Below, piece by piece: positions 35,754-56,241 of a stretch of DNA of 64,000 nucleotides. Both the position numbers and the translations under genes were made by a program. The stretch's first letter is position 1; every line of letters begins with the position of its first letter. The notes beneath the pieces were generated by a model. It was not told where the DNA came from, did no database searches, and saw only the letters and a program-made list of their open reading frames with translations. This DNA is from Candidatus Tayloriibacteriota bacterium. GTDB taxonomy: Bacteria; Patescibacteriota; Minisyncoccia; Phycocordibacterales; PALSA-1337. Location: NCBI GenBank assembly GCA_903857825.1, contig CAIOGI010000010.1, positions 46,542 to 110,541 of the forward strand. The letters are read 5' to 3'.

Positions 35754-35798
35754 AATCGTATCATTTAATACTCTTAATCGTATCAAAATGATACGATT
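35754..35798. promoter_or_regulatory. operator-like element: perfect palindrome AATCGTATCA-aaa-TGATACGATT (35776-35798) plus an extra half-site AATCGTATCA (35754-35763) abutting the Fic start codon
   Basis: read directly; 10-bp arms; lies between the Fic gene start and the ychF stop. Confidence 0.55.
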
Positions 35799-36972: not shown

Positions 36973-37362
36973 CTATTCGGCTAACTTTTTCTTTATTTTC
37001 TCAATCACCTGCTCTAGCTTAACTTCAGACTTAATATAATATTCAAATGATTCATGATCATTTATCTCTGCCATTTGCATAGCTAAGAACAGATGATCTA
37101 TATCATTTACATTTGTCAAAATAATGAAATGTGCTTTTTTACCCCATTCGTCCTTTCGTAGTTCTTTCAACATCGCCAAACCATTCATTTTTGGCATTAA
37201 AATATCAACTAAAATTAAATCTGGATGCTCCTTTAATGAAATATTTAAACCTTCTTCACCATTTTTTGCATCAAAAACCGTAAAACCTTCGTTTTTCAAC
37301 TTTATATGCAATGCATTTCTTAGAGACTGATCATCTTCTGTAATTAGTACAATTTTTTTCAT
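36973..37362 (-). CDS. response regulator receiver-domain protein (CheY-like, stand-alone)
   Basis: ITEDD...LILVDILMPKMNG...receiver fold, 129 aa. Confidence 0.8.
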   Translation of the reverse strand: MKKIVLITEDDQSLRNALHIKLKNEGFTVFDAKNGEEGLNISLKEHPDLILVDILMPKMNGLAMLKELRKDEWGKKAHFIILTNVNDIDHLFLAMQMAEINDHESFEYYIKSEVKLEQVIEKIKKKLAE

Positions 37363-37363
37363 A

Positions 37364-37747
37364 TTATTTTATGTTTGAAAGAGTTGATAATACTTTCTCG
37401 AGAACAGTATCGATTTTCCAATCTGTTTTCACTAAATAATCTATAATGCCAAGCTTTTTTGCTTCTTCTAATCTTGATGAATCGCTAAGATTACTCAACA
37501 TTATAATTTTAGAATTTTTTCCCCATTCATCATTTCTCAATCTAGTTAATACCTCTATACCATCCATTTTAGGCATTATTATGTCCAATAAAATTAGATC
37601 TGGATGTTGTTCTAATGCTATCTTAAGACCTTCCTCCCCATTCCTTGCTTCTATACATGAGAAATTTTGTCCACTAAATTTTTCTCTCATTATTTTCATC
37701 AATGATGATTCATCTTCGATTATTAACACTCTTTTTATATTATTCAT
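37364..37747 (-). CDS. response regulator receiver-domain protein (CheY-like, stand-alone)
   Basis: IIEDE...LILLDIIMPKMDG..., 127 aa. Confidence 0.8.
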   Translation of the reverse strand: MNNIKRVLIIEDESSLMKIMREKFSGQNFSCIEARNGEEGLKIALEQHPDLILLDIIMPKMDGIEVLTRLRNDEWGKNSKIIMLSNLSDSSRLEEAKKLGIIDYLVKTDWKIDTVLEKVLSTLSNIK

Positions 37748-37756
37748 ATTTTTTAA

Positions 37757-38251
37757 TTATAAAGTGGTTATTATATCTACTAAACCATTTTTAAGATTGA
37801 AGGTAATCGCTTTTCCTGAATTACCACCCGTGTCTTCATTGTCTATTCTTATACCATTTTTTTTAAGCTGGTTCCTGGCGGATTCTATATTTTGGAAGCC
37901 AATACCATTTTTATCACCCATCAACTTTCTAAACATAGAAGCACCTCCAACAAGCTTAGCTTCCATATTCTCTATTTTAGCACCTATTTTTTTTAAACCG
38001 TATATCAGATTATCCACAGATTCATCGGCATATTTACCAGAGGTATTATGTGGGCTGAAATCAACAGAACCTAATTCAACTTTTTGACTATCTCTTCTCG
38101 TTGGTAGCATGGAATGCGCTAGACCTCCTATTTTAGCCTCCTTATCGTATATACATATAACTATACAGGACCCTATACTACCTGTCCTTATAATTTTATC
38201 ATCTCTTTCTACAATCAATTCACCAGTTTTTATTTGAATTTCATTTTCCAT
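37757..38251 (-). CDS. cheD: chemoreceptor glutamine deamidase CheD
   Basis: ...IRTGSIGSCIVICIYD...GGLAHSMLP... CheD conserved Cys/His block; 164 aa. Confidence 0.8.
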   Translation of the reverse strand: MENEIQIKTGELIVERDDKIIRTGSIGSCIVICIYDKEAKIGGLAHSMLPTRRDSQKVELGSVDFSPHNTSGKYADESVDNLIYGLKKIGAKIENMEAKLVGGASMFRKLMGDKNGIGFQNIESARNQLKKNGIRIDNEDTGGNSGKAITFNLKNGLVDIITTL

Positions 38252-38259
38252 TAAGAATA

Positions 38260-38877
38260 TTACTTAATTTTAATTTTTATCATTTCAAGTATCTTTGAAC
38301 TAGAAACTGGATCAAAAAGATAAAAGAAATCGCCTTCCATATTTTCTTCTTTTATATCTAGTTTAACCTTAAATACCAAGATATCTCCACTAACTGAACC
38401 CATTTCAGCAAGAACACTATCTAGCACCGCTCCAGATCTATCTATTGATATATCTGGAATTGAATGTATCAAATTTAAATTTAAAAATTTATTTATAGCT
38501 GTAATAGAAGCACCCAAAAGAATATTGCCCATTTCCTGCAATGCTGATTTATCATTTTCACTAATTCCTTCTACATTATCATTTTTTGAATTATTTAAAA
38601 TACTTATAAAATTTAATGCACTCTTTGGAGAAAGTATCATTACCATTGCACCTTTAAATTCACCTGTAAACTTTAGAAAAGTTGCAATGACTTTTTCATC
38701 ACTTTTTCCTATTATTCTCTGTACCTCCTCTATTCCACCTGTATATGATTCTGGGACTGTCATTGTGACTTTTTTCCCAATCATTGTAGAAAGTGCTGTG
38801 GAAGCGTTACCTATTCCTATGTTGGTAATCTCTTTTAATTGATCATTCTCTTCCTCAGTTAATATTTGTTTAATCAT
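38260..38877 (-). CDS. cheC: CheY-P phosphatase CheC (CheC/CheX/FliY family)
   Basis: two CheC-type repeats (...EITNIGIGNASTALSTMIG... and ...QEMGNILLGASITAINKFL...). Confidence 0.75.
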   Translation of the reverse strand: MIKQILTEEENDQLKEITNIGIGNASTALSTMIGKKVTMTVPESYTGGIEEVQRIIGKSDEKVIATFLKFTGEFKGAMVMILSPKSALNFISILNNSKNDNVEGISENDKSALQEMGNILLGASITAINKFLNLNLIHSIPDISIDRSGAVLDSVLAEMGSVSGDILVFKVKLDIKEENMEGDFFYLFDPVSSSKILEMIKIKIK

Positions 38878-38905
38878 ATAAGTTTATTAATATTATAATC
38901 AAATT

Positions 38906-40621
38906 CTACAAAAAGCTAGTTGCATCTAAAATCAAAATAGTATCTCCATCTCCCAATATTGTAGAGCCAGAGAAGCCTTTTGCACCTTTTAATACTGATG
39001 GTAATGGTCTTACAATAATTTCCTCTTCGCCAATGAGCTTATCTATTATCAAACCAGCTGTTTCATTACCTTTTTCTATTAAAACTGCAAGTCTTTTTTT
39101 ATCTTGAGTATTTGAATTTTCGACTGAAATTGAAAGTATTTTTTTTAAAGATATAAGAGGAATATCATTACCATCTATTACAGCCATATCTGTTTCAGCA
39201 ACACTTTTAATATCGGAATTATCAATATATACAGAACGAATAATACTTGAAAAGGGAATTGCAAAAGTCGAATTATTTATTTTAACCAATAAAACTTTTA
39301 TAATAGCGAGTGTTAAAGGTAAATTTAATGTAAATCTAGTACCACCATTATTATTTACGGGAGAAACAACTTCAATATCGCCACCTATTTGATCCACAAA
39401 TTCCTTAATAACGCTAGTTCCAACTCCCCTTCCTGAAGTTTCAGTCACGCTATCATTTGTTGATAATCTAGGATTATATAGTAAATCCTTCTCTAAAATC
39501 GGTTGCCAGATACTTTGAGGATTCATTTCAATTGAAGACAAGTATTCATTACTTTTTTCTGCATTAATTATTTCTCTTTTGAGAGCTGCATTTACTAATT
39601 CTTTCCATCTTATACCAAAGCCATTATCCTCAATAATGATAGAAGCATGGTCCTTACTATGCTTGGCTTCAAGTCTAATAATTCCTTTTTCTTGAATGCC
39701 ATGATCAACTGCATTTCTCAATAAATGCCCTAGTGGTTCTGCAAGCTTATCGATTATACTTCTATCCATTTCTATATCTTCTCCAGTGATGATAAGGTCA
39801 ATTTCCTTATTTGACTTGTTTGCTAAATCACGAATCATTCTAGGAAATCTAGCAAAGATTTGTCCTGCTGGAACAAGTCTTGATTGCATTACCGAATATT
39901 GTAAATTAGAAATTAATAAGTTTAAATGTTCTACTGCAGGTTTTAATGAGCTTAGTATATCCTCTTTATTTAAAAATGATGAATTTTCAATTTTTGAATC
40001 TAAAATGGAATTTAATCTCATCTTCTCTGCTAATAATTCTTCACTGAGGTCCATTAAACTATCTAACCTTTTTATAGGAACCTTTACATGAGAAATATTT
40101 TCAGTCTCATTAGATTTTATTTTATAAACAGGAATGTCTGTTTCTTTTTTTATACTTTCATCCTTTTTTATATCTTGGACCTTTTTTACTTTAACCATCT
40201 CATCTGTTTTTGTACCAAATAATTCTTTTATTCTTAGTGAGTAACTCTCCAAATCAGATTCTATATTGTTATCTTTAATATTCCTTAAAGATTCAGAAAG
40301 CATATCAACAGACTCGAATATAACTTCGAAGGTATCTACTGATATTTTAGATATTCCATTTCTTACATTATCAAAAACATCTTCTAGAACATGTGTTAAA
40401 AAAGCCATTTTTGTATAGCCCATTGTTGCCGAGGAACTTTTCAATGTATGTGCAGAGCGCATAAGTGAATCAAAAACTTCTCTATACTTTTTCTCATCAA
40501 CTTGATCACCTGCCTGTTTTTGCTTTAAAAGTTTTTCTCCAAGTAAAAGATTTTCATTAATTTTTTGTAAATTATCTTCTACTTCACTTATAAAAATATC
40601 TTTAAACTTGTTTATGTCCAT
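38906..40621 (-). CDS. cheA: chemotaxis histidine kinase CheA
   Basis: Hpt domain (RSAHTLKSSSATMG), dimerisation region, HATPase_c (IIEDNGFGI ... GRGVG), C-terminal CheW-like domain. Confidence 0.9.
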   Translation of the reverse strand: MDINKFKDIFISEVEDNLQKINENLLLGEKLLKQKQAGDQVDEKKYREVFDSLMRSAHTLKSSSATMGYTKMAFLTHVLEDVFDNVRNGISKISVDTFEVIFESVDMLSESLRNIKDNNIESDLESYSLRIKELFGTKTDEMVKVKKVQDIKKDESIKKETDIPVYKIKSNETENISHVKVPIKRLDSLMDLSEELLAEKMRLNSILDSKIENSSFLNKEDILSSLKPAVEHLNLLISNLQYSVMQSRLVPAGQIFARFPRMIRDLANKSNKEIDLIITGEDIEMDRSIIDKLAEPLGHLLRNAVDHGIQEKGIIRLEAKHSKDHASIIIEDNGFGIRWKELVNAALKREIINAEKSNEYLSSIEMNPQSIWQPILEKDLLYNPRLSTNDSVTETSGRGVGTSVIKEFVDQIGGDIEVVSPVNNNGGTRFTLNLPLTLAIIKVLLVKINNSTFAIPFSSIIRSVYIDNSDIKSVAETDMAVIDGNDIPLISLKKILSISVENSNTQDKKRLAVLIEKGNETAGLIIDKLIGEEEIIVRPLPSVLKGAKGFSGSTILGDGDTILILDATSFL

Positions 40622-40626
40622 TATGA

Positions 40627-41670
40627 TTATTTTACCAGACTTATTATACGATTAGAAATTTCTTTTGGTGTCAAGATTTCATCTGCCAATCCTTCATCAA
40701 TTATTGCCTTAGGCATAGAATCTATCACTGTAGTCTCTGGAGTTTGAGCTATTATTATACCACCAGCTTGCTTTATTTTCCTTGCACCTAGAAGACCATC
40801 ATTACCCATACCGCTTAAAATAATACCAACAACTTTATCTTTATAAACTTTTACCACAGATTCCATTACAAAATTAATACAAGGTCTTGCACCACCATAA
40901 CTACTTTTTTTATTTAATTTTAATCTTTTACTTTCTAACATCTCAAATTCAAAATCGGTTGGAACAACATATACTCTCTTTGTAATCATATAGTCACCAT
41001 CCTTTGCTTCTACAACTTGCAAAGGACTTATCTTATTTAAACGTTCTGCAAACTTGGGTATAAAATATGCTGGCATATGCTGTACTACAATAATAGTAGA
41101 GAGAAGATCATTTGGAAGTAATCTAATAATGTCTTCAACTATAGGAGGACCTCCGGTAGATGAACCTATAACTATTACTTTTTCAGAAAGAACCAGTGAG
41201 TCTTTTTTTGTTTCTGATACTTTGTGTATACCTTTAGAGTAAACTTTTACATTTGCCAGTGAAGCAACGTGCACCTTTAATATAATCTCATCTTTAATTG
41301 AATCAATATCTATAGATATTTCCCCTGAAGGTTTAGTAATAAAGTCAATTGCTCCAGCTCTAAGGCTATCTAATACAATATCAGAACCGGCTAATGCATG
41401 AGCTGATATCATTATTATTGAGGGCTTCTTAAGATTAGAAAAAGAAAAAATCTCAGTTATTGTATCAATACCATTTCTATCTGGAAGATTATAATCCATA
41501 GTTATCACGTCTGGTGATAATTGTTTACTTTTTACCACTGCCTCATCGCTATTTTGTGCCGTACCAACAACTTCTATCTGATTATCAGATTCCAAAATCT
41601 CCCTCAAGAGTTTCCTCATGAAAAAAGAATCGTCAACAACTAAGACGCGAATTTTATTTTTTAGAGACAT
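40627..41670 (-). CDS. cheB: chemotaxis response regulator protein-glutamate methylesterase CheB
   Basis: N-terminal receiver (VLVVDDS...VITMDYNLP) plus C-terminal CheB methylesterase (VIGSSTGGPP..., ...HMP...). Confidence 0.9.
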   Translation of the reverse strand: MSLKNKIRVLVVDDSFFMRKLLREILESDNQIEVVGTAQNSDEAVVKSKQLSPDVITMDYNLPDRNGIDTITEIFSFSNLKKPSIIMISAHALAGSDIVLDSLRAGAIDFITKPSGEISIDIDSIKDEIILKVHVASLANVKVYSKGIHKVSETKKDSLVLSEKVIVIGSSTGGPPIVEDIIRLLPNDLLSTIIVVQHMPAYFIPKFAERLNKISPLQVVEAKDGDYMITKRVYVVPTDFEFEMLESKRLKLNKKSSYGGARPCINFVMESVVKVYKDKVVGIILSGMGNDGLLGARKIKQAGGIIIAQTPETTVIDSMPKAIIDEGLADEILTPKEISNRIISLVK

Positions 41671-41683
41671 TTTGTCTTACATA

Positions 41684-42046
41684 TTATCCTAATATCTTCA
41701 GTATCTCGTCTTCAACCTGACGATTATCAAATGGCTTAACAAGATAACCTTTTGCTCCAAGCTTCATAGCTTCTTCTATTATCTTTTCCTGACCTACAGC
41801 GCTAATCATGATTACTTTTGTACTTGTACCTATCTCCTTTAGAACATCCATTCCCCCTTTTTCAGGCATTATAATATCCATTAAAACTAAATCAGGTTTT
41901 TCAGAACTAATCTTCTCGATCGCCTCATTACCATTTGCTGCTTCAATAAAGTTTTTACATCCTACATTTTCAAGAATATTCTTTAGAACTGTTCTCATGA
42001 AAGCAGAGTCGTCAACTATAAGTATTTTTTGAGTTATTGTATTCAT
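41684..42046 (-). CDS. cheY: chemotaxis response regulator CheY
   Basis: KILIVDDSAFMR...LVLMDIIMPEKGG...KGYLVKPF; 120 aa. Confidence 0.85.
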   Translation of the reverse strand: MNTITQKILIVDDSAFMRTVLKNILENVGCKNFIEAANGNEAIEKISSEKPDLVLMDIIMPEKGGMDVLKEIGTSTKVIMISAVGQEKIIEEAMKLGAKGYLVKPFDNRQVEDEILKILG

Positions 42047-42049
42047 TTT

Positions 42050-42637
42050 TTATTTATAAATTTCTATTAATTTTGCAATGTTCTTATTGAAAAGAATATA
42101 GAGCTGAGCGTTTATCTGATGTTTTGCTATTTTTAGTACAGTCTTAAAGACCAAGACACTATCTCCATTATCAATATTTTTACCCTTAAGATCTAGTATA
42201 ATATTTTCTATATTACTTGCAGTCATCATATATGGCTCCCCAAACATCAGATTCATCTCGGTATTCTTTGATAGATAATTTAAATATGAATTTGATAAAA
42301 TATTTAATGTTTCCTTTACGGCTGATTTATCGAGATCCATAAGTACTCCAGTAGTTCCAATTTCCTTTTGATTTAGCAAATCTACAAGAGTTAGGGCAAC
42401 CTCTCTAGGCATGAGCAGCATAGAAACACCCTCGGAATTACCAATTGTCTGCGTATATGTAATAATAGCTTGCTCATGTCCATCTTTTAAACTATTAATT
42501 AAAAAGTCATATGACATCACTTCTAGGACGGCAGTTTCAACACTTACATTTTCTCTTGATAGTTTTGAAAAAGCACGAGAGACCTCTTCACTACCATTTT
42601 TAGCAACTTTTTCTAAGAGTTCTTTTGAAAAAATCAT
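42050..42637 (-). CDS. second CheC/CheX-family protein (divergent)
   Basis: ...ETLNILSNSYLNYLS... CheC-like repeat; 195 aa; weaker match than 38260-38877. Confidence 0.5.
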   Translation of the reverse strand: MIFSKELLEKVAKNGSEEVSRAFSKLSRENVSVETAVLEVMSYDFLINSLKDGHEQAIITYTQTIGNSEGVSMLLMPREVALTLVDLLNQKEIGTTGVLMDLDKSAVKETLNILSNSYLNYLSKNTEMNLMFGEPYMMTASNIENIILDLKGKNIDNGDSVLVFKTVLKIAKHQINAQLYILFNKNIAKLIEIYK

Positions 42638-42646
42638 AATATATAA

Positions 42647-43204
42647 TTAATTATTCGCCTTAATAACAGAACCTAATGTTAATAAATCCTTATCTGACAA
42701 TAACTTCATTAAGTTTAACATGATAATTATTCTCGAGCTAGTTCCATCTTTACCCTCAAGAACTACCACACCATCAATATATTCTGCATGAATTTTATTT
42801 GATATAAGCTCGGGAGCTGTCTTTATATTTGTGACTGGAACATGCAAAACCTCTTTAACTCTATCGACAACAACACCAAAATCATTATTTTCTACTTCTG
42901 TAATAATAATATGCTTAGGACTAAGTTTATTGTTGCGTGAAAAGTTAAAACGTTTTTCCAAATCAACTGTAACAATTATCTTGCCTCTGAGATTGAATAT
43001 TCCCCTTATAAATTCAGGCGAATTTGGTATTGGTGTTATATTAGGAATATTAATAATCTCTCTAAGATCATTAATTTTCAATGCATATTCTTCATTATCT
43101 AATTCAAAAACAACTATTTGAATCTGCTCAATAATCTCCTTATTATTTTTATTGTTATTCGTACTTACACTATGAATTATATTTTGTATGTTTTCATCAT
43201 TCAT
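42647..43204 (-). CDS. cheW: chemotaxis coupling protein CheW
   Basis: single CheW-like domain (...IVVFELDNEEYALKINDLREI...IRGIFNLRGKII...). Confidence 0.85.
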   Translation of the reverse strand: MNDENIQNIIHSVSTNNNKNNKEIIEQIQIVVFELDNEEYALKINDLREIINIPNITPIPNSPEFIRGIFNLRGKIIVTVDLEKRFNFSRNNKLSPKHIIITEVENNDFGVVVDRVKEVLHVPVTNIKTAPELISNKIHAEYIDGVVVLEGKDGTSSRIIIMLNLMKLLSDKDLLTLGSVIKANN

Positions 43205-43220
43205 ATATTGTAATAATTAA

Positions 43221-45008
43221 TTATTCTTTTTTATCATCTTGTATTTTGACATCAGATATCTTTTTTGACTTTATAGCATTGCTTAATGAACTATGAACTA
43301 TTGTTTTTTGATTTTTAACAACTCCAGCAAGTACCTGTAGGTCTAGTGATAATGCTTCTAGTTGTTGCGCTGATGCTGCTATTTGCTGATTTGCAGCACT
43401 TTCTTGTTGAGTAGAAGCGGAGAGTTGCTGTGCTCCTGAAGAGTTTTGTTCTGCAACCGCAGCGATAGAGTCCATAGTTTTTGCAATTTGCTTTATTGAT
43501 GCAGCTTGTTGCTGTATAGCTGCTGCCACTTCTTGAATTTTACTAGAGACTTCTTGAGTTGATTTGAAGGTTCCAGTCATTGATGTGTCTATTTGATTTA
43601 CAATATTTCTAATCTCCCCAGCAGAAACCGATGATGTTTCTGCCAACTTTCTAACTTCGTCTGCAACAACAGCGAAACCTCTACCAGCTTCTCCTGCTCT
43701 AGCTGCTTCTATAGCTGCATTGAGGGCCAACATATTCGTTTGCTCGGCTATAGTCGTGATTGTTTGTACCATTTGGCCTATTTTTTCTGCATCTTGCCCA
43801 GTTTTCTGCATTAGTTGAGAGGAATTTGATGCTGCTGATGAAACCTCTTGTGCAGATGCTGACATTTGTTGTATTGCTGCTGACATTTGAGAAATGGCTT
43901 GTGATATTTCCTCAGCTTGTTTGGATTGTTGTGTAGCTCCTGATGCCACTTGTTGAGATATAGAAGCATTCTGCTGTGATGAAGCAGATGATTGTTGTGA
44001 TGTTGCGGATAGTTGAGTGGCTGCATTACTTAATTGCTCGACTATTTTTCTAATAGGTCTCTTTATGAATTCACCCATTGATTTTGATGCAAAAATTGAT
44101 ACCAATGCAACAAGAACCAAAGTAATAAATAGTATAAATAAAATAATATTAAGTAACTGGGCAGTTGAAGCAAATGCTTCATTGCTATTTATTTCTGAAA
44201 CTATACACCAATTTTTACCTAAACTATTTTTTACATGAGTATTTGAATAACTACCGACAACCTCATTGCCCATATAATCAGTTGTAATGCCAGAAAATTC
44301 TGTACCCGCCAAGCAATCTGCAACGGCCCTGGATGAATTTTTGGTCTTTAGAATTGCATCATTAATATATTTTGAATTAGTAATGAAATAACCATCACTA
44401 TTAATAATATATGTTTCTTTTGTCTTTAGTTCACCAGTATACTTTACAACATCAGATAATCTACTATTCTTCGATCGAGCAGCGATAACTCCGACAAATT
44501 CACCTGTTTTTGTATATATTGGAGCAGAAACAACATATCCAATTTCATTTGTTGTTTCTGATAAATATGTATCCTTCAAATATGCTTTTTTCGTGAGAAA
44601 TGGCTTACTAAATAATAAATCGTCGTATTTATTCAAACCAACATTTTTTAACTCTGTAGATGCAACAATTTTACCAGATGAATTCATTAAAAATATCTCA
44701 AAAAAATTTGAATTATCAGCAAATATTTTATCAATGCTGGAATTGATTACCGCTAAATTTGTCAAATTAAGAAATGCATCGTTATGAGCCAGAATATCAA
44801 TCATGCCCAGTTCGCCATTAAAAAATATTGTCGTAATATGTTCTAATTCTTCAGAAGTGAATTTTGCAGTATCGACTGTCTTTGTCTGAAGTGCTTTTTG
44901 TGAGGAGTTGTAACTCAAGTAACTGATTACTAGAGTTGGTATAAGACCTATAAACAAAAACCAACCTAAGAAACGACCAGTTAGACCTAAATTTTTAAAT
45001 GACTTCAT
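43221..45008 (-). CDS. methyl-accepting chemotaxis protein with periplasmic Cache-type sensor
   Basis: N-terminal TM, sensor, TM, HAMP, then MCP signalling domain (...[36 protein letters not shown]...). Confidence 0.85.
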
Positions 45009-45072
45009 TTCAATGATATTTAATAAATAATAATATTTAATATTAACTCAATTATTATAACACATTCTTATT

Positions 45073-47886: not shown

Positions 47887-49202
47887 AGAGCTTTCTTTGA
47901 TGACTTTAATTCTTCAATCTCCTTCTTTAGTTTTATCATTTCCAACTCTCTTCCAACCATGAGTTTGTTGGTACGCTCAGATTCAGATAAATTATTTTTT
48001 AATTCAATCTCCTTTTTACTTAATTCTTCAGTTCTTTCTCTAACCTTATTGTCAAGATTATTATAAAGATCAGCCAATTTACTTGCCATTATATTAAATG
48101 ATCCAGCAAGTTCTGAGAATTCATCATTCTGACCAACATCAATCTTTTTATTGAAATTACCATCACTGATCTCTTTAGAAAAAACTTTTAACTTGTTTAG
48201 CGGACTAATAATCCTAGTAACAGTTTTGAATATAATCAAAATCATAGCTATAAGACCAATGAGAATGAGGACTATGAGCATTATGGTTATATTTATGACT
48301 GTACCTGTTATGCTTTCAATTCCTATTTCAGTTACCAAAAAAAACGGAAGATTGTTTATTCTAGAAACACTGATGATTTCATCCTCGCTTTCTTTTTCAT
48401 CATAAATCTTAATGGTTGTTGGTGCTTTATAATTACGCACAAGCTCCTGCGCCTCGGTATATTGAATGGGGAGTATTTCTTTTCCAAGATATTTATCCGT
48501 CTTAGATATTTTTTCTTTTTCTATATCTGATAATTCACCAAGACTCTTTAGAAATCTTTTTTCTTTATTAGAATAAATAATAACTCCATTTTCATCTGTA
48601 AGCATAACTGTACTTTCTTTTGCAGCCTCACTGTACATGAGAGAATTATTTATTTCCTTTACATCAACTTTGACAACCATTACACCCAGAACATCTTTAT
48701 TTTTGTTAATGACAGGATAGGAGAAATAATAGCCAAATTCATTTGTAGTTTTTCCAAGAAAATGATCTACGAAATGTTCGCCTTTAAGGCCTTTTTTGAA
48801 ATAATCTCTAAAAGAGTAGTTTTGACCACTCAGACGTGGATCTGTAGATATAAGAGTATTGCCCTCTTTATCTAATAAATATATTGATAAGTACTTTTTA
48901 TCATCAGAAGCATAATCAGAAAATATTCCAAGAAGTTCAGTTCTTTTTGCCTCTGTTTTGTTTAAAAGATATTCCAATACCCTTGTACGAGTTCCTAGCA
49001 TTTTCACAAATAGTTCATTATTTGTGAAAATCTGAGCAGACTCATGTGTCTGTTCTATGTTTAATTGTCCTATAGACTTTATTTTTTGTTCTATAAGTAC
49101 ATTATTCAAATAAAAATAAGTAGAAAAGCTAAAAATAATACAAAATAGTAAAGAAATTAATGATAATGATATTATAATCTTTTTTCTTATTGTATATTTC
49201 AT
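47883..49202 (-). CDS. Cache-sensor + HAMP + coiled-coil protein with no output domain; 4-bp overlap with the downstream histidine kinase gene
   Basis: TM, sensor, TM, HAMP (ISPLNKLKVFSKEISDGNFNKKIDV...DEFSELAGSFNIM...), then coiled coil; 439 aa. Confidence 0.6.
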   Translation of the reverse strand: MKYTIRKKIIISLSLISLLFCIIFSFSTYFYLNNVLIEQKIKSIGQLNIEQTHESAQIFTNNELFVKMLGTRTRVLEYLLNKTEAKRTELLGIFSDYASDDKKYLSIYLLDKEGNTLISTDPRLSGQNYSFRDYFKKGLKGEHFVDHFLGKTTNEFGYYFSYPVINKNKDVLGVMVVKVDVKEINNSLMYSEAAKESTVMLTDENGVIIYSNKEKRFLKSLGELSDIEKEKISKTDKYLGKEILPIQYTEAQELVRNYKAPTTIKIYDEKESEDEIISVSRINNLPFFLVTEIGIESITGTVINITIMLIVLILIGLIAMILIIFKTVTRIISPLNKLKVFSKEISDGNFNKKIDVGQNDEFSELAGSFNIMASKLADLYNNLDNKVRERTEELSKKEIELKNNLSESERTNKLMVGRELEMIKLKKEIEELKSSKKAL

Positions 49203-49237
49203 TTTTTTAAATTAACTTTAACCATTATACCAAGATA

Positions 49238-49645
49238 TTAAATTTCTTGCCATGAAGATATAACCAGTGGATTGAATGAGCTCGTATTTATATTTAATTT
49301 CCTTATGACACCAGCAGATTCTCCGGATATAACTATACTTCTTGTGCCTCCACCTGTATTGATTATATTGTAATTACAAGAATCACCATCTAAAGTGATA
49401 TTATCAGTACCAGTATAATTGTTATTTTCTCTGATAGTTTCTAGAGCAACTTCAGCACACGCCATTGTCAAACTTTTTGCCTTGTTAGCATTTTTTGTAT
49501 CAGTACTTCCTTTTATTGACCAGAGACTACTGGTTGATAGTGTTAAGGCTAATGACAGTGCAACGGTTCCGATGATAATAACTATAAATAAAGTAGAAAA
49601 ACCTTTTTTGTTTATAAAGTTATTATATTTTTTAGTGTTAATCAT
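49238..49645 (-). CDS. pilin-like protein (prepilin-type N-terminal hydrophobic segment, lacks Glu+5)
   Basis: KKGFSTLFIVIIIGTVALSLAL; 135 aa; in the pilus gene cluster. Confidence 0.5.
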   Translation of the reverse strand: MINTKKYNNFINKKGFSTLFIVIIIGTVALSLALTLSTSSLWSIKGSTDTKNANKAKSLTMACAEVALETIRENNNYTGTDNITLDGDSCNYNIINTGGGTRSIVISGESAGVIRKLNINTSSFNPLVISSWQEI

Positions 49646-49660
49646 ATATAAATTTGTATA

Positions 49661-50176
49661 TTATTTTCTCAATCCCCCACTACCGAAGAAAGTAAAGGAG
49701 TAAGCTCCTCCAGGACTAGTAGTTGTCGATATGCTAGAAAGTTTAAAGGAAATTTTAATAATATTTGGAGTACTAGGTCGTGATAAGTTTGAAAATATTA
49801 AATCACTAGCTATAACCTTGTTATTAGTTAAAGCAATCTCTGCTCCAGATCCTTCTTTCATATAAATAACTCCGTTGTTTTCAGAAAATATGGTTGGATT
49901 TTTAATTGATGTATATGTTACTAAATTTAAATTTAATGCTGTATTCCCTATTGTAGGACTATTTACCTGACTTGCATTACGTAATGTCTGAGTAATAGTC
50001 TTCATTACTCTCGCACCTTGATCATTTACTTCAAGTACTATTTGATTGTGCAATCTCGAAGAGGATAAACTACTCATAAAAGTAGTAACCGAAAGTATGA
50101 AGATAGAAAATATGCTTATATATATAAGTGTTTCAACTAAACTAATTCCTTTTTTGAATTCAAATGTTTTAAACAT
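49661..50176 (-). CDS. type IV pilin / pseudopilin (prepilin-type cleavage and methylation N-terminus)
   Basis: KKGISLVETLIYISIFSIF (G^xxxxE); 171 aa. Confidence 0.6.
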   Translation of the reverse strand: MFKTFEFKKGISLVETLIYISIFSIFILSVTTFMSSLSSSRLHNQIVLEVNDQGARVMKTITQTLRNASQVNSPTIGNTALNLNLVTYTSIKNPTIFSENNGVIYMKEGSGAEIALTNNKVIASDLIFSNLSRPSTPNIIKISFKLSSISTTTSPGGAYSFTFFGSGGLRK

Positions 50177-50186
50177 ACATTTTCAA

Positions 50187-52328
50187 TTATTGTGGCCTTA
50201 GATTAACACCGAATGCGTGTTTTACAGTAGTTCCACTCGTACCTATACTATCAATATCACCTATCACACCAGTATTTGAAATAAACTTTCTATATCCTGC
50301 CCTTGAAAAGTCAGAACTAGTATTTCCATGGTCATAGTCCTCGGTCCAGCCGCCAGACTGCGTAAGCGGTGCAGCAAATGTTCTAACTGTTGTTGTATAC
50401 ATACTCGGGAACATCAAAACAGTTGAACTTGCAAACGATGCATTTATCGAAGCTGCTCTATATGTTGTATTATTTGCTACATACTCTACATTTGTTGATG
50501 TCGCAATTGGATTTGCTGTGTTGAAGCATCCTCTATATGCAGATATTGTCACTGCTAATTTTGAACTTGAAGTCAGACCAAATGTATAATTTGAACCCTC
50601 TCCAGCCTGAGCAACTTTATAATACAAAGCTTGATTATTTACATTATTTTTATGACGTCCTATTAATGTCCAACCTGCTGGTATAGTAGAAAGTCGGTCA
50701 GAAGAATTTGAATGCAGAATATGAGCAAACATAATATCATTGGTTGTGACACCTGTAGGTTTATTAACAATTGCTGATGTGGCTCCAGATGAATCAAATA
50801 ACGTAGGTGTACCAACCAAAGCTGAGGCAACCGAACATGATGGGGCTACTATTTGTTCATTTGTAATTAAACAGCTTTTAGAACTTCCAGCAATAAGCGT
50901 TACTGCGCCACTAGAATTACAATCCCCAGTAAATGTTCTTGTATAATTTGCATCATTTGCCTCAGAAACTGAATATGTGCCTGAGTCCATTAATGTTGAT
51001 GCTGCTAGAGTAACTGTAGTCGTTCCATTTGCATTTCCAACTCTAAACGGAGCAAAGTCAGAAGCAACTTTTGTACCTCCATGATTTATAACAGTTTTGT
51101 TTACCGTGATGTATGCTGGTTTTTCTTCATTAATTAATGTGCAGTATTTTGTCGCTCCAGATGTTAAAACCACCGTACTTGTCGCATTACAATCACCACT
51201 AAAACTGAGTGAGTAAAGTGTGCTTGTAGCTTCAGATACCACATGAGATCCAGAATCTAGTGTTGTGGTTGCGCCTAGTGTAACCGTATTTCCATCAATC
51301 TTATATGGAGCAAAGTCTGCTGCAACTTTTGAGCCTCCATGATTTATAACAGTTTTATTTAAAACAATTGAAGAAAGTTTCTCTTCGTTTGTTATAGTGC
51401 AGTTTTTTGTATTTCCTGCTGTCAGAGTTACCAGTCCACCAGAATCACAATCACCACTAAATGATCTATCGTATAGTGAATCATTTACTTCAGAAACTGT
51501 ATGTAGTCCTGAATTAAAAGTATTAAGCGCTCCAGAAATAACAGGGTTAGAATCAATCAGTAGTGTAAAATCAGAGGCGATTTTGGAAAGTCCATGATTA
51601 ATAACAGATTTAGTGACCACAATTTTAGATGGTTTTTCTTCATTTGTTATAGTACATGAGTTTGTTGTACTTGCGACTAGATTGATGTCACCATTTGTAT
51701 CACAATCACCACTAAACGTAGTTGTGTAACTCGCATCGTTTGATTCAGAGATACTATATACACCTGGTGGGAATTCATTGGCAATACCGATATTTACTGT
51801 CGTTGTACCTACTTGATATGGAGCAAAGTCTGCTGCTACCTTAGAAGCTCCATGATTAATAACACTTTTGTTTACTGTTAACCCAGCATTTGTATTCAAA
51901 ATTGCACGCCAATTGGTTAGATATGTACTTAGCTTTAAAGTATTAGTCGCAGATATTTGATCTGCCCAGTTTATAGTCACATCAACTCTTTTTTGATTAT
52001 CATTTATTGTAGTAATATTCAATGTCCTGCTAAAAATATCACTTAGATCAGAAACTCCAGAAAAGCTCCACTGATTAGTCGATGTAGATAGTCCGTATGT
52101 ACCGTCAATTAGATTGTTAAAATTTTCATCTCTTATATTTCTAGATGCCTCTATCGCTTCTTCTGCAAGTACCGCTGCCCTTTGTTTGTTTGCAGAGTTT
52201 CTGACCTCCTTACTTACATTACCTGTAACATTTGTAGTAGCTATAATAAATACAAGAAAAATAGAGACCGATACTAGTAATTCTACCAGTGAAAAACCTT
52301 TTTTAATATGTAACAGTTCCTTTTTCAT
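50187..52328 (-). CDS. large type IV pilin-like protein (713 aa) with four tandem ~85-aa Cys-pair repeats
   Basis: KKGFSLVELLVSVSIFLVF prepilin N-terminus; repeats VINHG(A/G/L)(S/T)K(V/I)A(A/S)DF...FSGDC...C(T/L)ITNEEK at residues ~151-234, 235-320, 321-404, 405-492. Confidence 0.65.
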   Translation of the reverse strand: MKKELLHIKKGFSLVELLVSVSIFLVFIIATTNVTGNVSKEVRNSANKQRAAVLAEEAIEASRNIRDENFNNLIDGTYGLSTSTNQWSFSGVSDLSDIFSRTLNITTINDNQKRVDVTINWADQISATNTLKLSTYLTNWRAILNTNAGLTVNKSVINHGASKVAADFAPYQVGTTTVNIGIANEFPPGVYSISESNDASYTTTFSGDCDTNGDINLVASTTNSCTITNEEKPSKIVVTKSVINHGLSKIASDFTLLIDSNPVISGALNTFNSGLHTVSEVNDSLYDRSFSGDCDSGGLVTLTAGNTKNCTITNEEKLSSIVLNKTVINHGGSKVAADFAPYKIDGNTVTLGATTTLDSGSHVVSEATSTLYSLSFSGDCNATSTVVLTSGATKYCTLINEEKPAYITVNKTVINHGGTKVASDFAPFRVGNANGTTTVTLAASTLMDSGTYSVSEANDANYTRTFTGDCNSSGAVTLIAGSSKSCLITNEQIVAPSCSVASALVGTPTLFDSSGATSAIVNKPTGVTTNDIMFAHILHSNSSDRLSTIPAGWTLIGRHKNNVNNQALYYKVAQAGEGSNYTFGLTSSSKLAVTISAYRGCFNTANPIATSTNVEYVANNTTYRAASINASFASSTVLMFPSMYTTTVRTFAAPLTQSGGWTEDYDHGNTSSDFSRAGYRKFISNTGVIGDIDSIGTSGTTVKHAFGVNLRPQ
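50853..51878. repeat. four tandem ~255-bp DNA repeats inside the giant pilin gene
   Basis: recurring blocks e.g. ...ctccatgat(t/a)(t/a)ataaca(g/c)(t/a)ttt(g/a)tt... at about 51100, 51340, 51600, 51850. Confidence 0.6.
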
Positions 52329-52764
52329 TTATATTAATATTTTTACTACCATATTCATTTGTAAGGGTCATTGTACCTGTCATACTTGTTTCTCCATTTA
52401 GCTTTTCAAATACAATTTCAGAAAGACCGCCGTTACTCATATTACCAGAGAAACTTAATGATTGTTCGAAATCCAAATCTCTACTATCGTAACTATCACC
52501 CTTAAAAACCAAAACCTTATCTGCAAACACTTTTACCCCCCATTTCGAATCAAATTTTCCAGACTCTGCACTTGCTTGTGCAAAACGTATTGCTTCCACC
52601 AAACCATTGGTGGCCAATTCTAAATTTGTATGTGACTTATAATTATAATATGAAGCAGTAGATATACTTGCGACAATAGCAAAAATACCAATAACAATTA
52701 GTACTTCCAAAAGAGAAAAACCCTTTTTATGAGATTTGTTCTGATAAACCATATATTGGTCCAA
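52303..52764 (-). CDS. type IV pilin / pseudopilin (GspH/FimT-like)
   Basis: KKGFSLLEVLIVIGIFAIV prepilin N-terminus; 153 aa. Confidence 0.6.
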   Translation of the reverse strand: MDQYMVYQNKSHKKGFSLLEVLIVIGIFAIVASISTASYYNYKSHTNLELATNGLVEAIRFAQASAESGKFDSKWGVKVFADKVLVFKGDSYDSRDLDFEQSLSFSGNMSNGGLSEIVFEKLNGETSMTGTMTLTNEYGSKNININEKGTVTY

Positions 52765-53869
52765 TTACTGCTAATACAATAAATCCTACAACTATTCCCA
52801 CAACTATTAATATTATTGGTTCAAGGACCGTCGCCAAGTCTCTAGACATGGCTTCAGTTTTTTCTTCAAAGATCACGCCAACCTTTATGGATGTTTCGGA
52901 CAAGCGACCTGATTTTTCTGCAGAAAGAATTAATTGTTGAATAGGTATCGGAACAAATCTCTCAGGCTTGTGATAGCTTGCTAAGGCAAGTTTAAATGAA
53001 TCACCATTCAATATAGATTCTTGTAAATGATTATAAAACTTTCTATATTGTGCATACGTTGTTCCTTTCTTCACTGATTCGAGGGCTTCATTTACTTGAA
53101 ATCCTGCTTGGAGTAATACTCCGAAAATATAGCCAAATCTTGCAAGCTCAACTCCTTGTATAAGATTTTTGACTCCTGGTATAGAAAATAGTATATAATC
53201 GCCGATAAATTTGGTTTTTTTAAATACAAAAACTAAATACACTAAAACAAATAAACCTACAATCACAGCAGGTACAGCCACAACTCCATAAACAGTAAGG
53301 AAATTACCAATCCAAAGCAAAATTCTTGTTGATACTGGCAATGTACCACTAGATGCTTGGAACATGGAAACCAGTCTTGGTAATACTACCCAGGAGCTTA
53401 CAACTCCCACAACAAATGCAAGTATCAATACTATGCCAGGATATAGAAGTGCAGAACGTAATCTAGAATTAAACATCTTTTCTTTGTGTTGCTGAAGGGT
53501 AACTAGATTTAGATGTTCAGGCAATCTACCTCCTTCTTCACCAGATCTTATGAGAGAAACAACTCTCTCAGAAAGAAAATTTGTCGCTTCAAAAGCTTTC
53601 CATAATGGTATCCCGTCATTTACCATATTTTCAATAGCTAATGTAGTTTTTTTCAAGGCTCTTCCTTTTATAGAAAGATTTAATGCTGAAAGTGCATTTG
53701 AAATACCCATACCAGAAGCTACGAGCAAACTAAGATTTTCAATAAAATAATCCTGTTCATCTCCAAATCCAATACTGATATATGGCCAGTCTGGTCTATA
53801 CTCAAAAACTGGCCTACTAAAACCTTTTTTTTCAAATGACTCTCTTAATTCAATCTTTCTATTTTGCAT
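52727..53869 (-). CDS. pilC: type IV pilus / T2SS platform protein (PilC/GspF family)
   Basis: two T2SS-F repeats, three TM segments, about 380 aa. Confidence 0.85.
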   Translation of the reverse strand: MQNRKIELRESFEKKGFSRPVFEYRPDWPYISIGFGDEQDYFIENLSLLVASGMGISNALSALNLSIKGRALKKTTLAIENMVNDGIPLWKAFEATNFLSERVVSLIRSGEEGGRLPEHLNLVTLQQHKEKMFNSRLRSALLYPGIVLILAFVVGVVSSWVVLPRLVSMFQASSGTLPVSTRILLWIGNFLTVYGVVAVPAVIVGLFVLVYLVFVFKKTKFIGDYILFSIPGVKNLIQGVELARFGYIFGVLLQAGFQVNEALESVKKGTTYAQYRKFYNHLQESILNGDSFKLALASYHKPERFVPIPIQQLILSAEKSGRLSETSIKVGVIFEEKTEAMSRDLATVLEPIILIVVGIVVGFIVLAVIGPIYGLSEQIS

Positions 53870-53896
53870 AATATTATTAAAATTAACGCATTAGAA

Positions 53897-55546
53897 TTAT
53901 TGAGGAACTACTACTCTCAAGAGTTCTTCAATTGTAGTTACTCCTTCCTTAATTTTATCTACCCCATCTTCAAACATTGTTTTAAATCCCTGACTTCTAA
54001 CAAGGGTGTATACGTCTTTTGTTGAAGGACTCTTACCGATCAAATCTTGTAATTCTGGAGATGTTTTCAAAAACTCAAATACTCCTATACGCCCCTTAAA
54101 GCCTGTATGTGAGCAAGAATCACATCCCTTTCCTTTATAAAAGTTAAATGTCTTGCCAACAAAATATTTACTTACCTCTGGTCCAAATTTACTGATTTTG
54201 CTTTGTGTATATGACTGACTAACCTTGCAAGAATCACATATTTTTCTAACCAATCTTTGTGCTATCAATAATTCTATTGTAGAACCCGCTAGAAATGGTT
54301 CAATTCCCATATCAATAAATCTTGGTATTGCTGCTGTGGCATTATTGGCATGAAAAGTAGACAAAAGTAGGTGCCCAGTAAGCGCTGCATTTACAGCTAT
54401 ATCTGCAGTTTCAAGATCTCGAATTTCACCTACGAATATTGTATTTGGATCCTGTCTGGTAATAGCTCTCAGACCTTTTGCAAAAGTAAGATTTGTTTGT
54501 TGATTTACTTGAATCTGATTTATACCTTGAATCTTATATTCAACTGGATCCTCGATCGTGGTAATGTTTGTTCTTTGGGTGTTAATAACTTTAATTATTG
54601 AGTAAAGGGTAGTTGTCTTTCCAGATCCAGTAGGACCGGTGACCAAAATCATTCCAAAAGGTTTCTTAGAGCTTACCTCGATCTGATCTTGTAGGCTTTT
54701 TGATAATCCAATGTCACTTAATGTTAGATCACGAACGTATGATGACAAGACGCGTATAGCGACTTTCTCTCCATCCAGCGTTGGGACAATTGATACTCGC
54801 AGATCAACTGGATGTGGATAGTTTTTTGAAATATAACGAATAGCTCCGTCTTGGGCACTAAAATGTTCATCTATGCGAAGTTTTGCCTGAACTTTTATAC
54901 GATTTACAATGTTTTCATAATATTCTTTTGGTAATTCACCAGCATCATGTAGTATTCCATCAATTCTAAAACGAATAGCAACTTTATTTTCTTGTGGTTC
55001 ACAGTGTATGTCTGAAGTTTTAAGCAATAAAGCATCTTCGAAAATCTGATCAAGTATTTCTGGTGCGACTCGCCCTTTTGACTCAATTATTTTTGAAAAT
55101 TTAGTTTTTAGTCCTTGTTGATAATTTACAAAAATAGAATCGATTTCATCAGACAATGCATAGGTGATTTTTATCTTTTTCCCAGGAAAAATAGGTGAAA
55201 GTCCCTCCACCAATGCCTTGTTTAAAGGATCATCAGTTGCTATCACTATTTCAGAATTTGTTTGAGAGAAAACAATAACACGAAGCTTTCTAGCGATTTC
55301 TTCAGGTATTAGCAATACCTGCTCTCTATTTGGTTGTTTTATACTTAAATCTGAATATTGAATTTTTAAAGATTCAGCAATTGCTTGACCAATAATATCT
55401 GTACTAGTAAGTCCTTCTAATAACAAATATTCTGTTGGCAACACTCTATGATCTTCAGCATAGTCTCTCGCTTTTTTAATATCTTCTTCAGTAATATAAT
55501 TTCCATCTAGTAGAATCTTTATTATTGTTTCTTGATCAAATTTCAT
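53897..55546 (-). CDS. pilB: type IV pilus assembly ATPase (PilB/GspE family)
   Basis: Walker A GPTGSGKTTT, Asp box, His box, tetracysteine CDSC...CSHTG; 549 aa. Confidence 0.9.
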   Translation of the reverse strand: MKFDQETIIKILLDGNYITEEDIKKARDYAEDHRVLPTEYLLLEGLTSTDIIGQAIAESLKIQYSDLSIKQPNREQVLLIPEEIARKLRVIVFSQTNSEIVIATDDPLNKALVEGLSPIFPGKKIKITYALSDEIDSIFVNYQQGLKTKFSKIIESKGRVAPEILDQIFEDALLLKTSDIHCEPQENKVAIRFRIDGILHDAGELPKEYYENIVNRIKVQAKLRIDEHFSAQDGAIRYISKNYPHPVDLRVSIVPTLDGEKVAIRVLSSYVRDLTLSDIGLSKSLQDQIEVSSKKPFGMILVTGPTGSGKTTTLYSIIKVINTQRTNITTIEDPVEYKIQGINQIQVNQQTNLTFAKGLRAITRQDPNTIFVGEIRDLETADIAVNAALTGHLLLSTFHANNATAAIPRFIDMGIEPFLAGSTIELLIAQRLVRKICDSCKVSQSYTQSKISKFGPEVSKYFVGKTFNFYKGKGCDSCSHTGFKGRIGVFEFLKTSPELQDLIGKSPSTKDVYTLVRSQGFKTMFEDGVDKIKEGVTTIEELLRVVVPQ

Positions 55547-55576
55547 AATATTTATTATATAAAAGAACTTTACTAA

Positions 55577-55957
55577 TTATAATGTTTTTATTCTTTGTTT
55601 AATCTTTTCAACAACCTCAGAAATTGGTGTGTTTGATTTAATAAAAAATTCAACAGCTCCCAGCTCTCTCACTCTTTTTTCATCTTCACTTTGGCTTAAA
55701 TTTGTCAAAACAATAACGGGGATCTTTATATTTTTATCTTTTAGTAATTGAAGAACTTGGAATCCATCAAATCTAGGCATCAACATATCACAAACAATTA
55801 ATTGACAATTAACGCTATTCAATGTTGACTCAAAATCTTCACCATTTGATAAAACTTTTACATCAAAACCTTCATGGGTAAGTTTCAGCTCTAATGCGCG
55901 AGCTAATGGCCTCTCATCTTCTAATACAATTATGATTTTCTTTTTTATTGATTCCAT
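55577..55957 (-). CDS. response regulator receiver-domain protein (PilH/CheY-like)
   Basis: IIIVLEDE...LIVCDMLMPRFDG...; 126 aa. Confidence 0.8.
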   Translation of the reverse strand: MESIKKKIIIVLEDERPLARALELKLTHEGFDVKVLSNGEDFESTLNSVNCQLIVCDMLMPRFDGFQVLQLLKDKNIKIPVIVLTNLSQSEDEKRVRELGAVEFFIKSNTPISEVVEKIKQRIKTL

Positions 55958-56013: not shown

Positions 56014-56241
56014 CTACTTCCCCATCACAGTCTTCAATTCTTGCTCATGTGCTTTCATTACAGCCATCATAGCATCTTGCTGAGACATACCTCCTTGTAT
56101 CTTTTCTTGAGCTTCCTTTGCAATTTTCATAAAAAAATCAGGATTCTTTTCAATCATAGCAAAGATCTGATCTTGCTGTTCCTGGGGCACACCCTTCATT
56201 TGCTTCTTCAACATTGTTTTCATCAAAAAGTTTTGAAACAT
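56014..56241 (-). CDS. hypothetical small Met/Gln-rich helical protein
   Basis: ORF track only. Confidence 0.35.
   Translation of the reverse strand: MFQNFLMKTMLKKQMKGVPQEQQDQIFAMIEKNPDFFMKIAKEAQEKIQGGMSQQDAMMAVMKAHEQELKTVMGK

Follow-up and report, generated by a model that had tools for sequence, protein, structure and literature searches.

Bacteria of the candidate phyla radiation (CPR, or Patescibacteria) have been described as lacking machinery for motility and chemotaxis (PMC11974145, PMC7143001, PMC11809585). What, then, does a long chemosensory gene cluster control in one of them, and how might its receptor adapt when no receptor methyltransferase is found nearby? These questions are raised by a stretch of 64,000 nucleotides (hereafter the window) from the tiny genome of Candidatus Tayloriibacteriota bacterium (contig CAIOGI010000010.1), in which positions 36973-55957 are occupied by 19 closely spaced genes, all on the minus strand, which form a single chemosensory and pilus cluster (identified from open reading frames (ORFs), Pfam and NCBIfam). 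We consider it probable that this is one long patescibacterial operon in which a pathway derived from the F1 chemosensory class controls a pilus, specified by a PilB-PilC-pilin module, and in which adaptation probably proceeds by deamidation only. More tentatively, we propose as a plausible general picture that Patescibacteria use a methyltransferase-free pathway whose receptors are born with Gln at all modification sites, are deamidated one way by CheD and CheB, and provide a memory, reset by turnover, that would steer a pilus used for finding or holding a host.

The order of transcription is a single-domain receiver (RRp), PilB, PilC, four prepilin-like genes, a dCache-HAMP sensor, a dCache-HAMP-PAS kinase, a dCache methyl-accepting chemotaxis protein (MCP), CheW, a 195-aa CheC paralog, CheY, CheB, CheA, CheC, CheD and two further single-domain receivers, RR1 and RR2, the last of which ends at position 36973. 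Consecutive genes are spaced by -38 to +64 bp, which gives the cluster an operon-like layout. Scans for promoters and terminators returned sites no more numerous than in shuffled sequence, and the transcript boundaries are therefore deduced from gene spacing alone. An earlier interpretation, made from the letters and ORFs of this DNA without database searches (the sequence-only reading), had listed the same genes, and each of them was recovered with its position on the minus strand (ORFs, Pfam). Its remark that flagellar genes are missing also agrees with our Pfam scan of the window ORFs of at least 110 aa, in which none was detected. The GC content of the cluster is uniform and equal to that of the rest of the window, so an origin as a horizontally acquired island is unlikely. 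Exactly matching proteins of the cluster recur in many assemblies, and the named homologs of its CheA and CheW (40-69% identity) come from Magasanik-, Uhr-, Wolfe-, Pace- and Gracilibacteria or from the “Patescibacteria group”.

To which class does the pathway belong? The sequence-only reading had suggested Chp-like control of a pilus. The link to pilus genes is likely (see below), but the term “Chp-like” can be retained by analogy only. CheA (38906-40621, 571 aa) has the architecture P1(Hpt)-P3-P4-P5 (Pfam Hpt, H-kinase_dim, HATPase_c and CheW). It contains one Hpt domain, no P2 (P1 is joined to P3 by a 48-aa linker) and no fused receiver, and the single Hpt together with the missing receiver rules out the ChpA/PilL architecture known from the type IV pilus (Tfp) class. 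Tfp systems contain the CheR protein PilK and lack CheC, CheD and CheX. In the cluster, CheC, CheD and a CheX-like protein are present, no PilK was found, and there is no multi-Hpt ChpA/PilL kinase with a receiver. What the locus has in common with Tfp systems is the adjacency of che genes to PilB, PilC and pilins and the presence of CheY-like single-domain regulators. Pil-Chp of Pseudomonas aeruginosa and Tax/Pix of Synechocystis show the same adjacency, and the likeness to them would lie in control of a pilus motor through single-domain CheY-like regulators. There is no homology to Pil-Chp at the level of class, as ChpA kinases combine multiple Hpt domains with a receiver at the C-terminus.

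The traits of the cluster correspond instead to those of the class that Wuichet and Zhulin reportedly defined in 2010 as F1: a single-Hpt CheA without a receiver, and CheC, CheD and a one-site CheC paralog encoded together with the core. Of the CheB and CheR pair typical of F1, CheB is intact, and neither ~76 kb of this genome nor ~490 kb of DNA from relatives yielded a CheR. Another F1 trait is missing from both the window and the compared CPR loci, namely flagellar or archaellar genes; the neighbours are bacterial PilB, PilC and prepilins. Searching 185,579 species genomes with an alignment yielded CheA relatives that included two CPR loci among the 80 matches listed (a scan of genome contigs with the window CheA as a single query gave no match). 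Among the matches listed, the best relatives from outside the CPR belong to Paenibacillus, Lachnospiraceae, Selenomonadales, Thermotogaceae and several Archaea (Halobacteriota, Methanobacteriota). The best NCBIfam model for the window CheA is CheA_Halo and the best solved structure is that of Thermotoga maritima CheA; the putative class affinity of CheA is based on these best matches from F1-bearing taxa and on the CheA_Halo model.

Gene order points the same way. The archaeal loci are arranged as CheY-CheB-CheA-(CheR)-CheC-CheD(-CheR)-CheW and those of Firmicutes as CheB-CheA-CheW-CheC-CheD; judged by order, the CPR core CheY-CheB-CheA-CheC-CheD is of the archaeal F1 type with the CheR slot empty. 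The archaeal systems (e.g. those of Halobacterium and Thermococcus, which control the archaellum) share with the window this core order, including CheC and CheD, and a haloarchaeal CheA model fits the window best. They act, as the window pathway would, on a filament of the type IV pilus superfamily and not on a flagellum, and their che genes adjoin the gene for the filament ATPase (in locus L015 a PilB-like ATPase is encoded upstream of CheY). The differences are nevertheless considerable. Of the eight archaeal relatives that share the gene order, six encode CheR within the cluster, and none was found in or near the window cluster; no CheF-type adaptor was noted in the window cluster, although no search aimed at CheF was made. 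Bacterial PilB, PilC and prepilins of the G-F-S-L-x-E type stand in the place of archaellins, CheA lacks P2, a one-site CheC paralog and a branch with a HisKA kinase are added, and the receptor is shortened, with modification sites that are nearly all Gln. The shared order suggests that, in both domains, F1 systems have an evolutionary connection with filaments of the type IV pilus superfamily. Full F1 che clusters were also seen in DPANN archaea (L011, Nanobdellota, with the order CheY x3-CheB-CheA-CheC x2-CheD-CheR-CheW, and L050, Woesearchaeota); their CheA proteins are about as similar to CPR CheA as those of other archaea.

The F1 systems of Bacillus subtilis and T. maritima have the same list of parts (CheA, CheW, CheY, CheB, CheC, CheD and, in some cases, CheX). 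Moreover, the receptor tip of the window MCP is nearly identical to that of T. maritima TM1143, and its CheC-CheD pair resembles the T. maritima pair in structure 2F9Z. These systems differ from the window in their Firmicutes order, CheB-CheA-CheW-CheC-CheD (loci which we take to be flagellar operons), in their output, which is the flagellar switch, and in their receptors, which have HAMP domains and mixed Glu/Gln sites and not the HAMP-less form of the window MCP. CheR is present in the F1 genomes of Bacillus and Thermotoga.

The second question, that of adaptation, starts from this missing enzyme. The Pfam scan detected no CheR domain in the ORFs of at least 110 aa of the window, and no CheR was found in ~10 kb to its left and 2.3 kb to its right, so that the negative result covers ~76 kb of this genome. 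A hidden Markov model (HMM) was built from 11 archaeal and bacterial CheR proteins of the compared loci; as a control, it recovered the CheR of L052, which had been left out of the building set, with an E-value of 2e-50. The same model matched nothing in six-frame translations of the window, and nothing in ~490 kb of six-frame translated CPR DNA, where the best E-value was 0.024. No CheR appeared in the Pfam tables of ten CPR relatives either. The claim of the sequence-only reading that the window holds no CheR was thus borne out by both methods, and a cheR gene just beyond the window, which it had named as the finding that would make the cluster conventional, did not turn up in the flanks covered. 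We regard this evidence on the absence of CheR from the neighbourhood as suggestive only.

Two candidates for a substitute enzyme were rejected. A hidden or non-canonical methyltransferase within the cluster is not to be expected, because all 19 genes could be assigned, and the lone unannotated one, that for the 195-aa protein, encodes a CheC paralog. In L110 a TrmA-like RNA methyltransferase is encoded upstream of the MCP; this enzyme is a tRNA/rRNA U5-methyltransferase and no CheR, and it is not conserved.

The receptor itself bears on the same question. The sequence-only reading had proposed a search of the MCP (43221-45008; dCache, no HAMP; Pfam MCPsignal) for methylation sites, and such sites are present: 14 matches to the consensus [ASTG]-x-x-[EQ][EQ]-x-x-[ASTG], of which ten are QQ, three QE, one EQ and none EE. 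In 19 cluster-linked CPR MCPs the sites amount to 158 QQ, 51 QE or EQ and a single EE, as compared with 7 QQ, 28 mixed and 19 EE in ten non-CPR MCPs of the compared loci (Fisher's test of QQ against EE for the first 14 CPR MCPs, p about 1e-18). Most site positions are Gln in 11-12 of 12 aligned CPR receptors, which are 36-59% identical to the window MCP. The pattern extends to 150 cluster representatives drawn from 1.8 billion proteins: receptors built as in the CPR, without HAMP and with a distance of 127/131 or 155/159 residues between membrane and tip, mostly have 4-13 QQ and 0-1 EE, with a few exceptions, and HAMP-containing receptors of the 44H type among the same representatives have 0-3 QQ and mostly 3-7 EE. 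A proteome-wide bias towards Gln can be ruled out as the cause, since Gln makes up 15% of the cytoplasmic domain of the receptor and 2.7% of the other proteins of the window.

By its geometry the window MCP seems to derive from a 44H receptor that was shortened. Its arms comprise ~18 heptads and align without gaps to the 44H receptor TM1143 around the tip, and the CPR paralogs of L100, L104 and L105 are longer by symmetric segments of 28 residues (four heptads) in both arms, which bring them to the 44H length; it is these two observations that suggest shortening.

How should the Gln-rich sites be read? Encoded Glu would be tolerated if methylation could neutralise it again, and a strict retention of Gln is therefore what would be expected in cells without CheR, in which a neutral side chain could come from the amide alone. 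Together with the CheR slot that is empty in comparison with the archaeal clusters, the all-Gln sites favour, rather than prove, an unusual mode of adaptation over a cheR gene located elsewhere. The latter explanation, a conventional F1 pathway with cheR elsewhere in the genome as in Bacillus, in which methylation and demethylation would follow deamidation by CheD and CheB and only the pilus output would be unusual, is conceivable, if doubtful. It fits poorly with the near absence of Glu-Glu pairs and the strict conservation of Gln in receptors that are otherwise only 36-59% identical to that of the window, with the tolerance of encoded Glu in lineages that contain CheR, and with the presence of CheR inside the clusters of relatives with the same gene order, as against none in the ~20 CPR clusters.

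Several points nevertheless weigh against deamidation-only adaptation and speak for the conventional arrangement. Firmicutes with F1 systems normally keep cheR far from cheA, and no CheR was seen in any Firmicutes F1 locus compared (e.g. L005, L008 and L012, none of which has cheR near cheA), so its absence near the cluster is weak evidence. The negative result covers only ~76 kb of this genome, and the ~490 kb scanned in relatives adds up to no more than about half of one CPR genome. The receptor sites match the canonical methylation consensus, the motif [AST]-x-x-Q-Q-x-x-[AST] being also that recognised by CheR. Finally, the best-known role of CheB is demethylation, and the strict conservation of this intact enzyme could equally mean that methylation exists.

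CheB (40627-41670) consists of a receiver and a methylesterase/deamidase domain (Pfam; NCBIfam CheB, 327 bits against a cut-off of 293). Its Ser/His/Asp motifs are invariant in 15 CPR CheB proteins, and their receiver aspartates are conserved, the sole change being that of an acidic-pocket Asp to Glu in L093. CheD, the receptor deamidase (37757-38251; Pfam CheD; T. maritima CheD 2F9Z, E 5e-27), has a catalytic Cys and His that are invariant in 13 CPR CheD proteins. As a separate observation, one CPR lineage encodes a 222-aa CheB that comprises the methylesterase domain without a receiver (L108, 9288-9956).

CheW (42647-43204; Pfam CheW, E 6e-34) is followed by the 195-aa protein (42050-42637), which gives a full-length alignment with T. 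maritima CheC (1XKR, E 6e-5), matches NCBIfam CheC_Thtogales (E 2e-10) and carries the motif D/S-x3-E-x2-N-x22-P of the CheC/CheX/FliY family on a CheC fold. The first of its active sites has been lost through changes of Glu to Lys and of Asn to Lys, and the second, S-x3-E-x2-N-x22-P, is invariant in four orthologs; by these residues it is a one-site CheC paralog that follows the logic of CheX and is kept in CPR clusters. CheC itself (38260-38877; two Pfam CheC domains) has two active-site motifs, both of which read D/S-x3-E-x2-N-x22-P, so that the CheY-P phosphatase motifs of CheC and of the remaining site of its paralog are intact. CheY (41684-42046; Pfam Response_reg, E 2e-28) retains the DD, D, S and K-P residues and is 58-72% identical to the CheY proteins encoded at the same position in CPR relatives.

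The dCache chemoreceptor, CheW and the P2-less CheA form the sensing core, and CheY and CheB are the canonical phosphoacceptors. From these parts we propose the following sequence of events. Binding of a ligand to dCache would modulate CheA. CheC and its one-site paralog would drain CheY-P, and a loop of CheC, CheD and CheY-P would provide fast feedback. The receptors would be made with ~10 Gln-Gln pairs that mimic methylated Glu, and CheD and CheB-P would convert receptor Gln into Glu irreversibly, which would result in a slow, one-way desensitisation. Because there would be no CheR to neutralise Glu again, resetting the system would need the synthesis of new receptors.

The third question concerns the output. 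The cluster encodes the parts of a type IVa-like pilus: an assembly ATPase, a platform protein and prepilins with class III signals. The ATPase is of the PilB type (53897-55546; Pfam T2SSE, E 7e-115; MshEN N-domain, E 3e-11), although the NCBIfam models for PilB and GspE score about equally and both below their cut-offs. The platform protein is of the PilC/GspF type (52727-53869; two Pfam T2SSF domains; NCBIfam GspF/PilC/ComGB). Four prepilin-like proteins follow, and the signals of the first three are of the KKGFS/ISL(L/V)E type. The first (52303-52764; N_methyl, E 4.6e-8; GspH/ComGD-like by NCBIfam) is an ORF of 153 aa, or 149 aa from the first Met, the latter being the length of the public gene calls (L088); its signal is KKGFSLLEVLIV. 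The second (50187-52328) is a giant of 713 aa with an N_methyl motif and the signal KKGFSLVELLV. It is a possible tip or adhesin pilin; its place in L086 and L087 is taken by orthologs of 642-810 aa, and in L109 by a 646-aa protein. The third (49661-50176, 171 aa; signal KKGISLVETLI) gives a weak N_methyl match and has orthologs in L086 and L087. The fourth (49238-49645, 135 aa) lacks Glu5 and any Pfam match; its N-terminus is KKGFSTLFIVIIIG, and L086 and L087 have orthologs of 135-162 aa in the corresponding place.

PilT, the prepilin peptidase PilD and PilM/N/O, which the sequence-only reading had proposed to look for nearby, were not detected in the window ORFs of at least 110 aa; PilM was found directly after the orthologous pil module in the loci L087, L109 and L110. 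PilT, PilM/N/O and PilD may be encoded elsewhere in this genome. With none of PilT, PilD or PilM in the window, the filament may serve host attachment or DNA uptake as well as twitching, which counts against too definite a view of the output. One alternative is that the module builds a pseudopilus of the competence or secretion type (similar to the Com system or to a type II secretion system) for DNA uptake or host adhesion, the assembly of which is merely gated by the sensory system. We consider this unlikely, although it accounts for a number of features: the four pilins resemble the minor pseudopilins GspH, ComGD, ComGE and Ppd (NCBIfam), the PilB protein scores equally as GspE and PilC as GspF/ComGB, and no PilT retraction ATPase was detected in the window. 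Moreover, CPR pili have been proposed to serve in DNA uptake and host interaction (PMC7143001). On the other hand, the three loci mentioned have PilM after the same module, which is a trait of type IVa-like pili, a PilT gene may lie elsewhere, and a taxis pathway with phosphatases and adaptation enzymes exceeds what on/off gating would need.

Is the proximity of che and pil genes meaningful? About 20 CPR loci were compared, two of which came from the genome scan and eight from look-ups of CheA homologs, the rest being obtained by a metagenome scan with an alignment of the CheC paralog; the che core is kept in all of these ~20 relatives. All 19 genes of the cluster have orthologs in L086, and most of them also in L087 and further CPR loci, which shows that the cluster is no chance juxtaposition. 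In at least nine of the CPR lineages, PilB, PilC and pilin genes adjoin the che core, and three arrangements occur. The pil block is located upstream of the che genes in the window, and downstream of CheD or of the receivers in L086, L087, L095, L105, L109 and L110; in L100 and L107 the pilins are upstream and PilB is downstream of the che genes. The order in L086, in which RRp-PilB-PilC-pilin-giant pilin-pilin-small pilin comes after CheD-RR-RR, is a cyclic permutation of that in the window. The preservation of linkage through three rearrangements argues for functional coupling, and we therefore regard a coupling of the chemosensory and pilus genes as likely, as far as comparative gene order can indicate it.

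It is improbable that this adjacency reflects nothing but the dense packing of a small genome and that the pathway has another output, of the type termed “alternative cellular function”. Two observations could be accommodated in this way: at least seven CPR lineages have a che core with no pil neighbours (L082, L084, L092, the P0011 locus, L108, L002 and L003), which is also a point against our own proposal, and the output regulators are, without exception, single-domain receivers for which no target could be identified. However, the linkage has outlasted three independent rearrangements with the RRp-PilB pair intact, and output domains of an alternative kind (DNA-binding, GGDEF etc.) occur in none of the clusters.

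Some of the compared loci showed peculiarities of their own. A Bro-N gene, typical of phages and mobile elements, lies between the receiver and PilB in L109 (13447-14283), with a second Bro-N gene upstream. The “CheY” of L082 (8577-8933, P0008 lineage) looks chimeric, being similar to the PilB-linked RRp family in its N-terminal half and to CheY in its C-terminal half. The L082 locus has no adjacent MCP, CheW or CheC paralog, and no second che locus of the P0008 lineage turned up among the CheW homologs.

The cluster contains four single-domain receivers, CheY included, and the other three lead to a further component of the pathway. RRp (55577-55957; Pfam Response_reg, E 1.4e-19), directly upstream of PilB, forms a reciprocal best pair with the third, PilB-abutting receiver of L086 (112 bits) and of L087 (105 bits), and its nearest solved structures are receivers that partner HisKA kinases, such as T. 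maritima RR468. Members of the RRp family are always neighbours of PilB. RR1 (37364-37747; Pfam; Spo0F-like in a PDB search) and RR2 (36973-37362; Pfam; comparison of receiver families) belong to the DEWGK family, RR2 with an insertion. A candidate kinase for them is the 937-aa protein with the domains dCache-HAMP-PAS-HisKA-HATPase (45073-47886; Pfam), orthologs of which are encoded upstream of the MCP in L084, L086, L092, L093 and L094. Its start is overlapped by 4 bp by the stop of a dCache-HAMP-coiled-coil sensor without an output domain (47883-49202; Pfam dCache_1, HAMP). Since all three receivers resemble partners of HisKA kinases (RR468, Spo0F), and an RR1-type receiver is encoded directly upstream of the kinase in L084, a second, classical two-component branch, made up of the sensor, the kinase and the three receivers, probably feeds the same output as the che pathway.

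In the pilus-control model proposed here, CheY-P and/or the receivers fed by the HisKA kinase, RRp especially, would act on PilB, PilC or PilM. Extension or assembly of the pilus would thereby be biased, leading to movement over a surface or attachment to a host cell. This would be analogous to Pil-Chp in Pseudomonas or to the control of the archaellum by Che in Archaea, yet assembled from F1 parts. Both the action of the regulators on the pilus motor and the binding of any of them to PilB are putative.

How CPR episymbionts find and hold their hosts is an open question, and a conserved sensory pathway that is linked to pilus genes is a testable candidate for the control of host-seeking or attachment. 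No description of a CPR che-pil cluster or of the CheR status of the CPR was found in the literature searched, from which subscription papers and MiST were excluded. If our proposal is correct, this would be the first natural adaptation system based on deamidation only, and it would mean that a group to which chemotaxis is usually denied is capable of directed behaviour. Adaptation without methylation would also change the textbook view, in which cycling by CheR and CheB is the core of chemotactic memory.

The surroundings of the cluster are of a housekeeping character, with genes for YchF and a Fic protein at one side and for glucose-6-phosphate dehydrogenase, an ABC transporter, malic enzyme and an H+-pyrophosphatase at the other. 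The Fic protein (34689-35786, minus strand), encoded directly downstream of the che genes, has a FUR-like winged-helix N-terminus; another Fic-domain protein is encoded at 4487-5233 (minus strand), giving two in the window. Just upstream of RRp lies an ORF of 75 aa (56014-56241, minus strand), rich in Met, Gln and Lys and helical, with no family match; it is also present as a gene call in other assemblies of the same organism.

Farther away, several genes of the window have unusual architectures. In the leucyl-tRNA synthetase (29562-32468, minus strand, 968 aa) the editing domain is followed by an inserted NUDIX hydrolase domain at residues 383-502 (Pfam). A 350-aa protein (28447-29499, minus strand) combines Sigma70 region 4 with HARE-HTH, and its gene adjoins a 422-aa ORF (27111-28379) with no Pfam match. 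A single ORF of 286 aa (10629-11489, minus strand) is a fusion of an MNT/Pol-beta nucleotidyltransferase and a HepT-like RNase, which normally form a two-gene toxin-antitoxin pair. The alanyl-tRNA synthetase (19544-21340, minus strand) is just 598 aa long and stops right after the tRNA_SAD domain.

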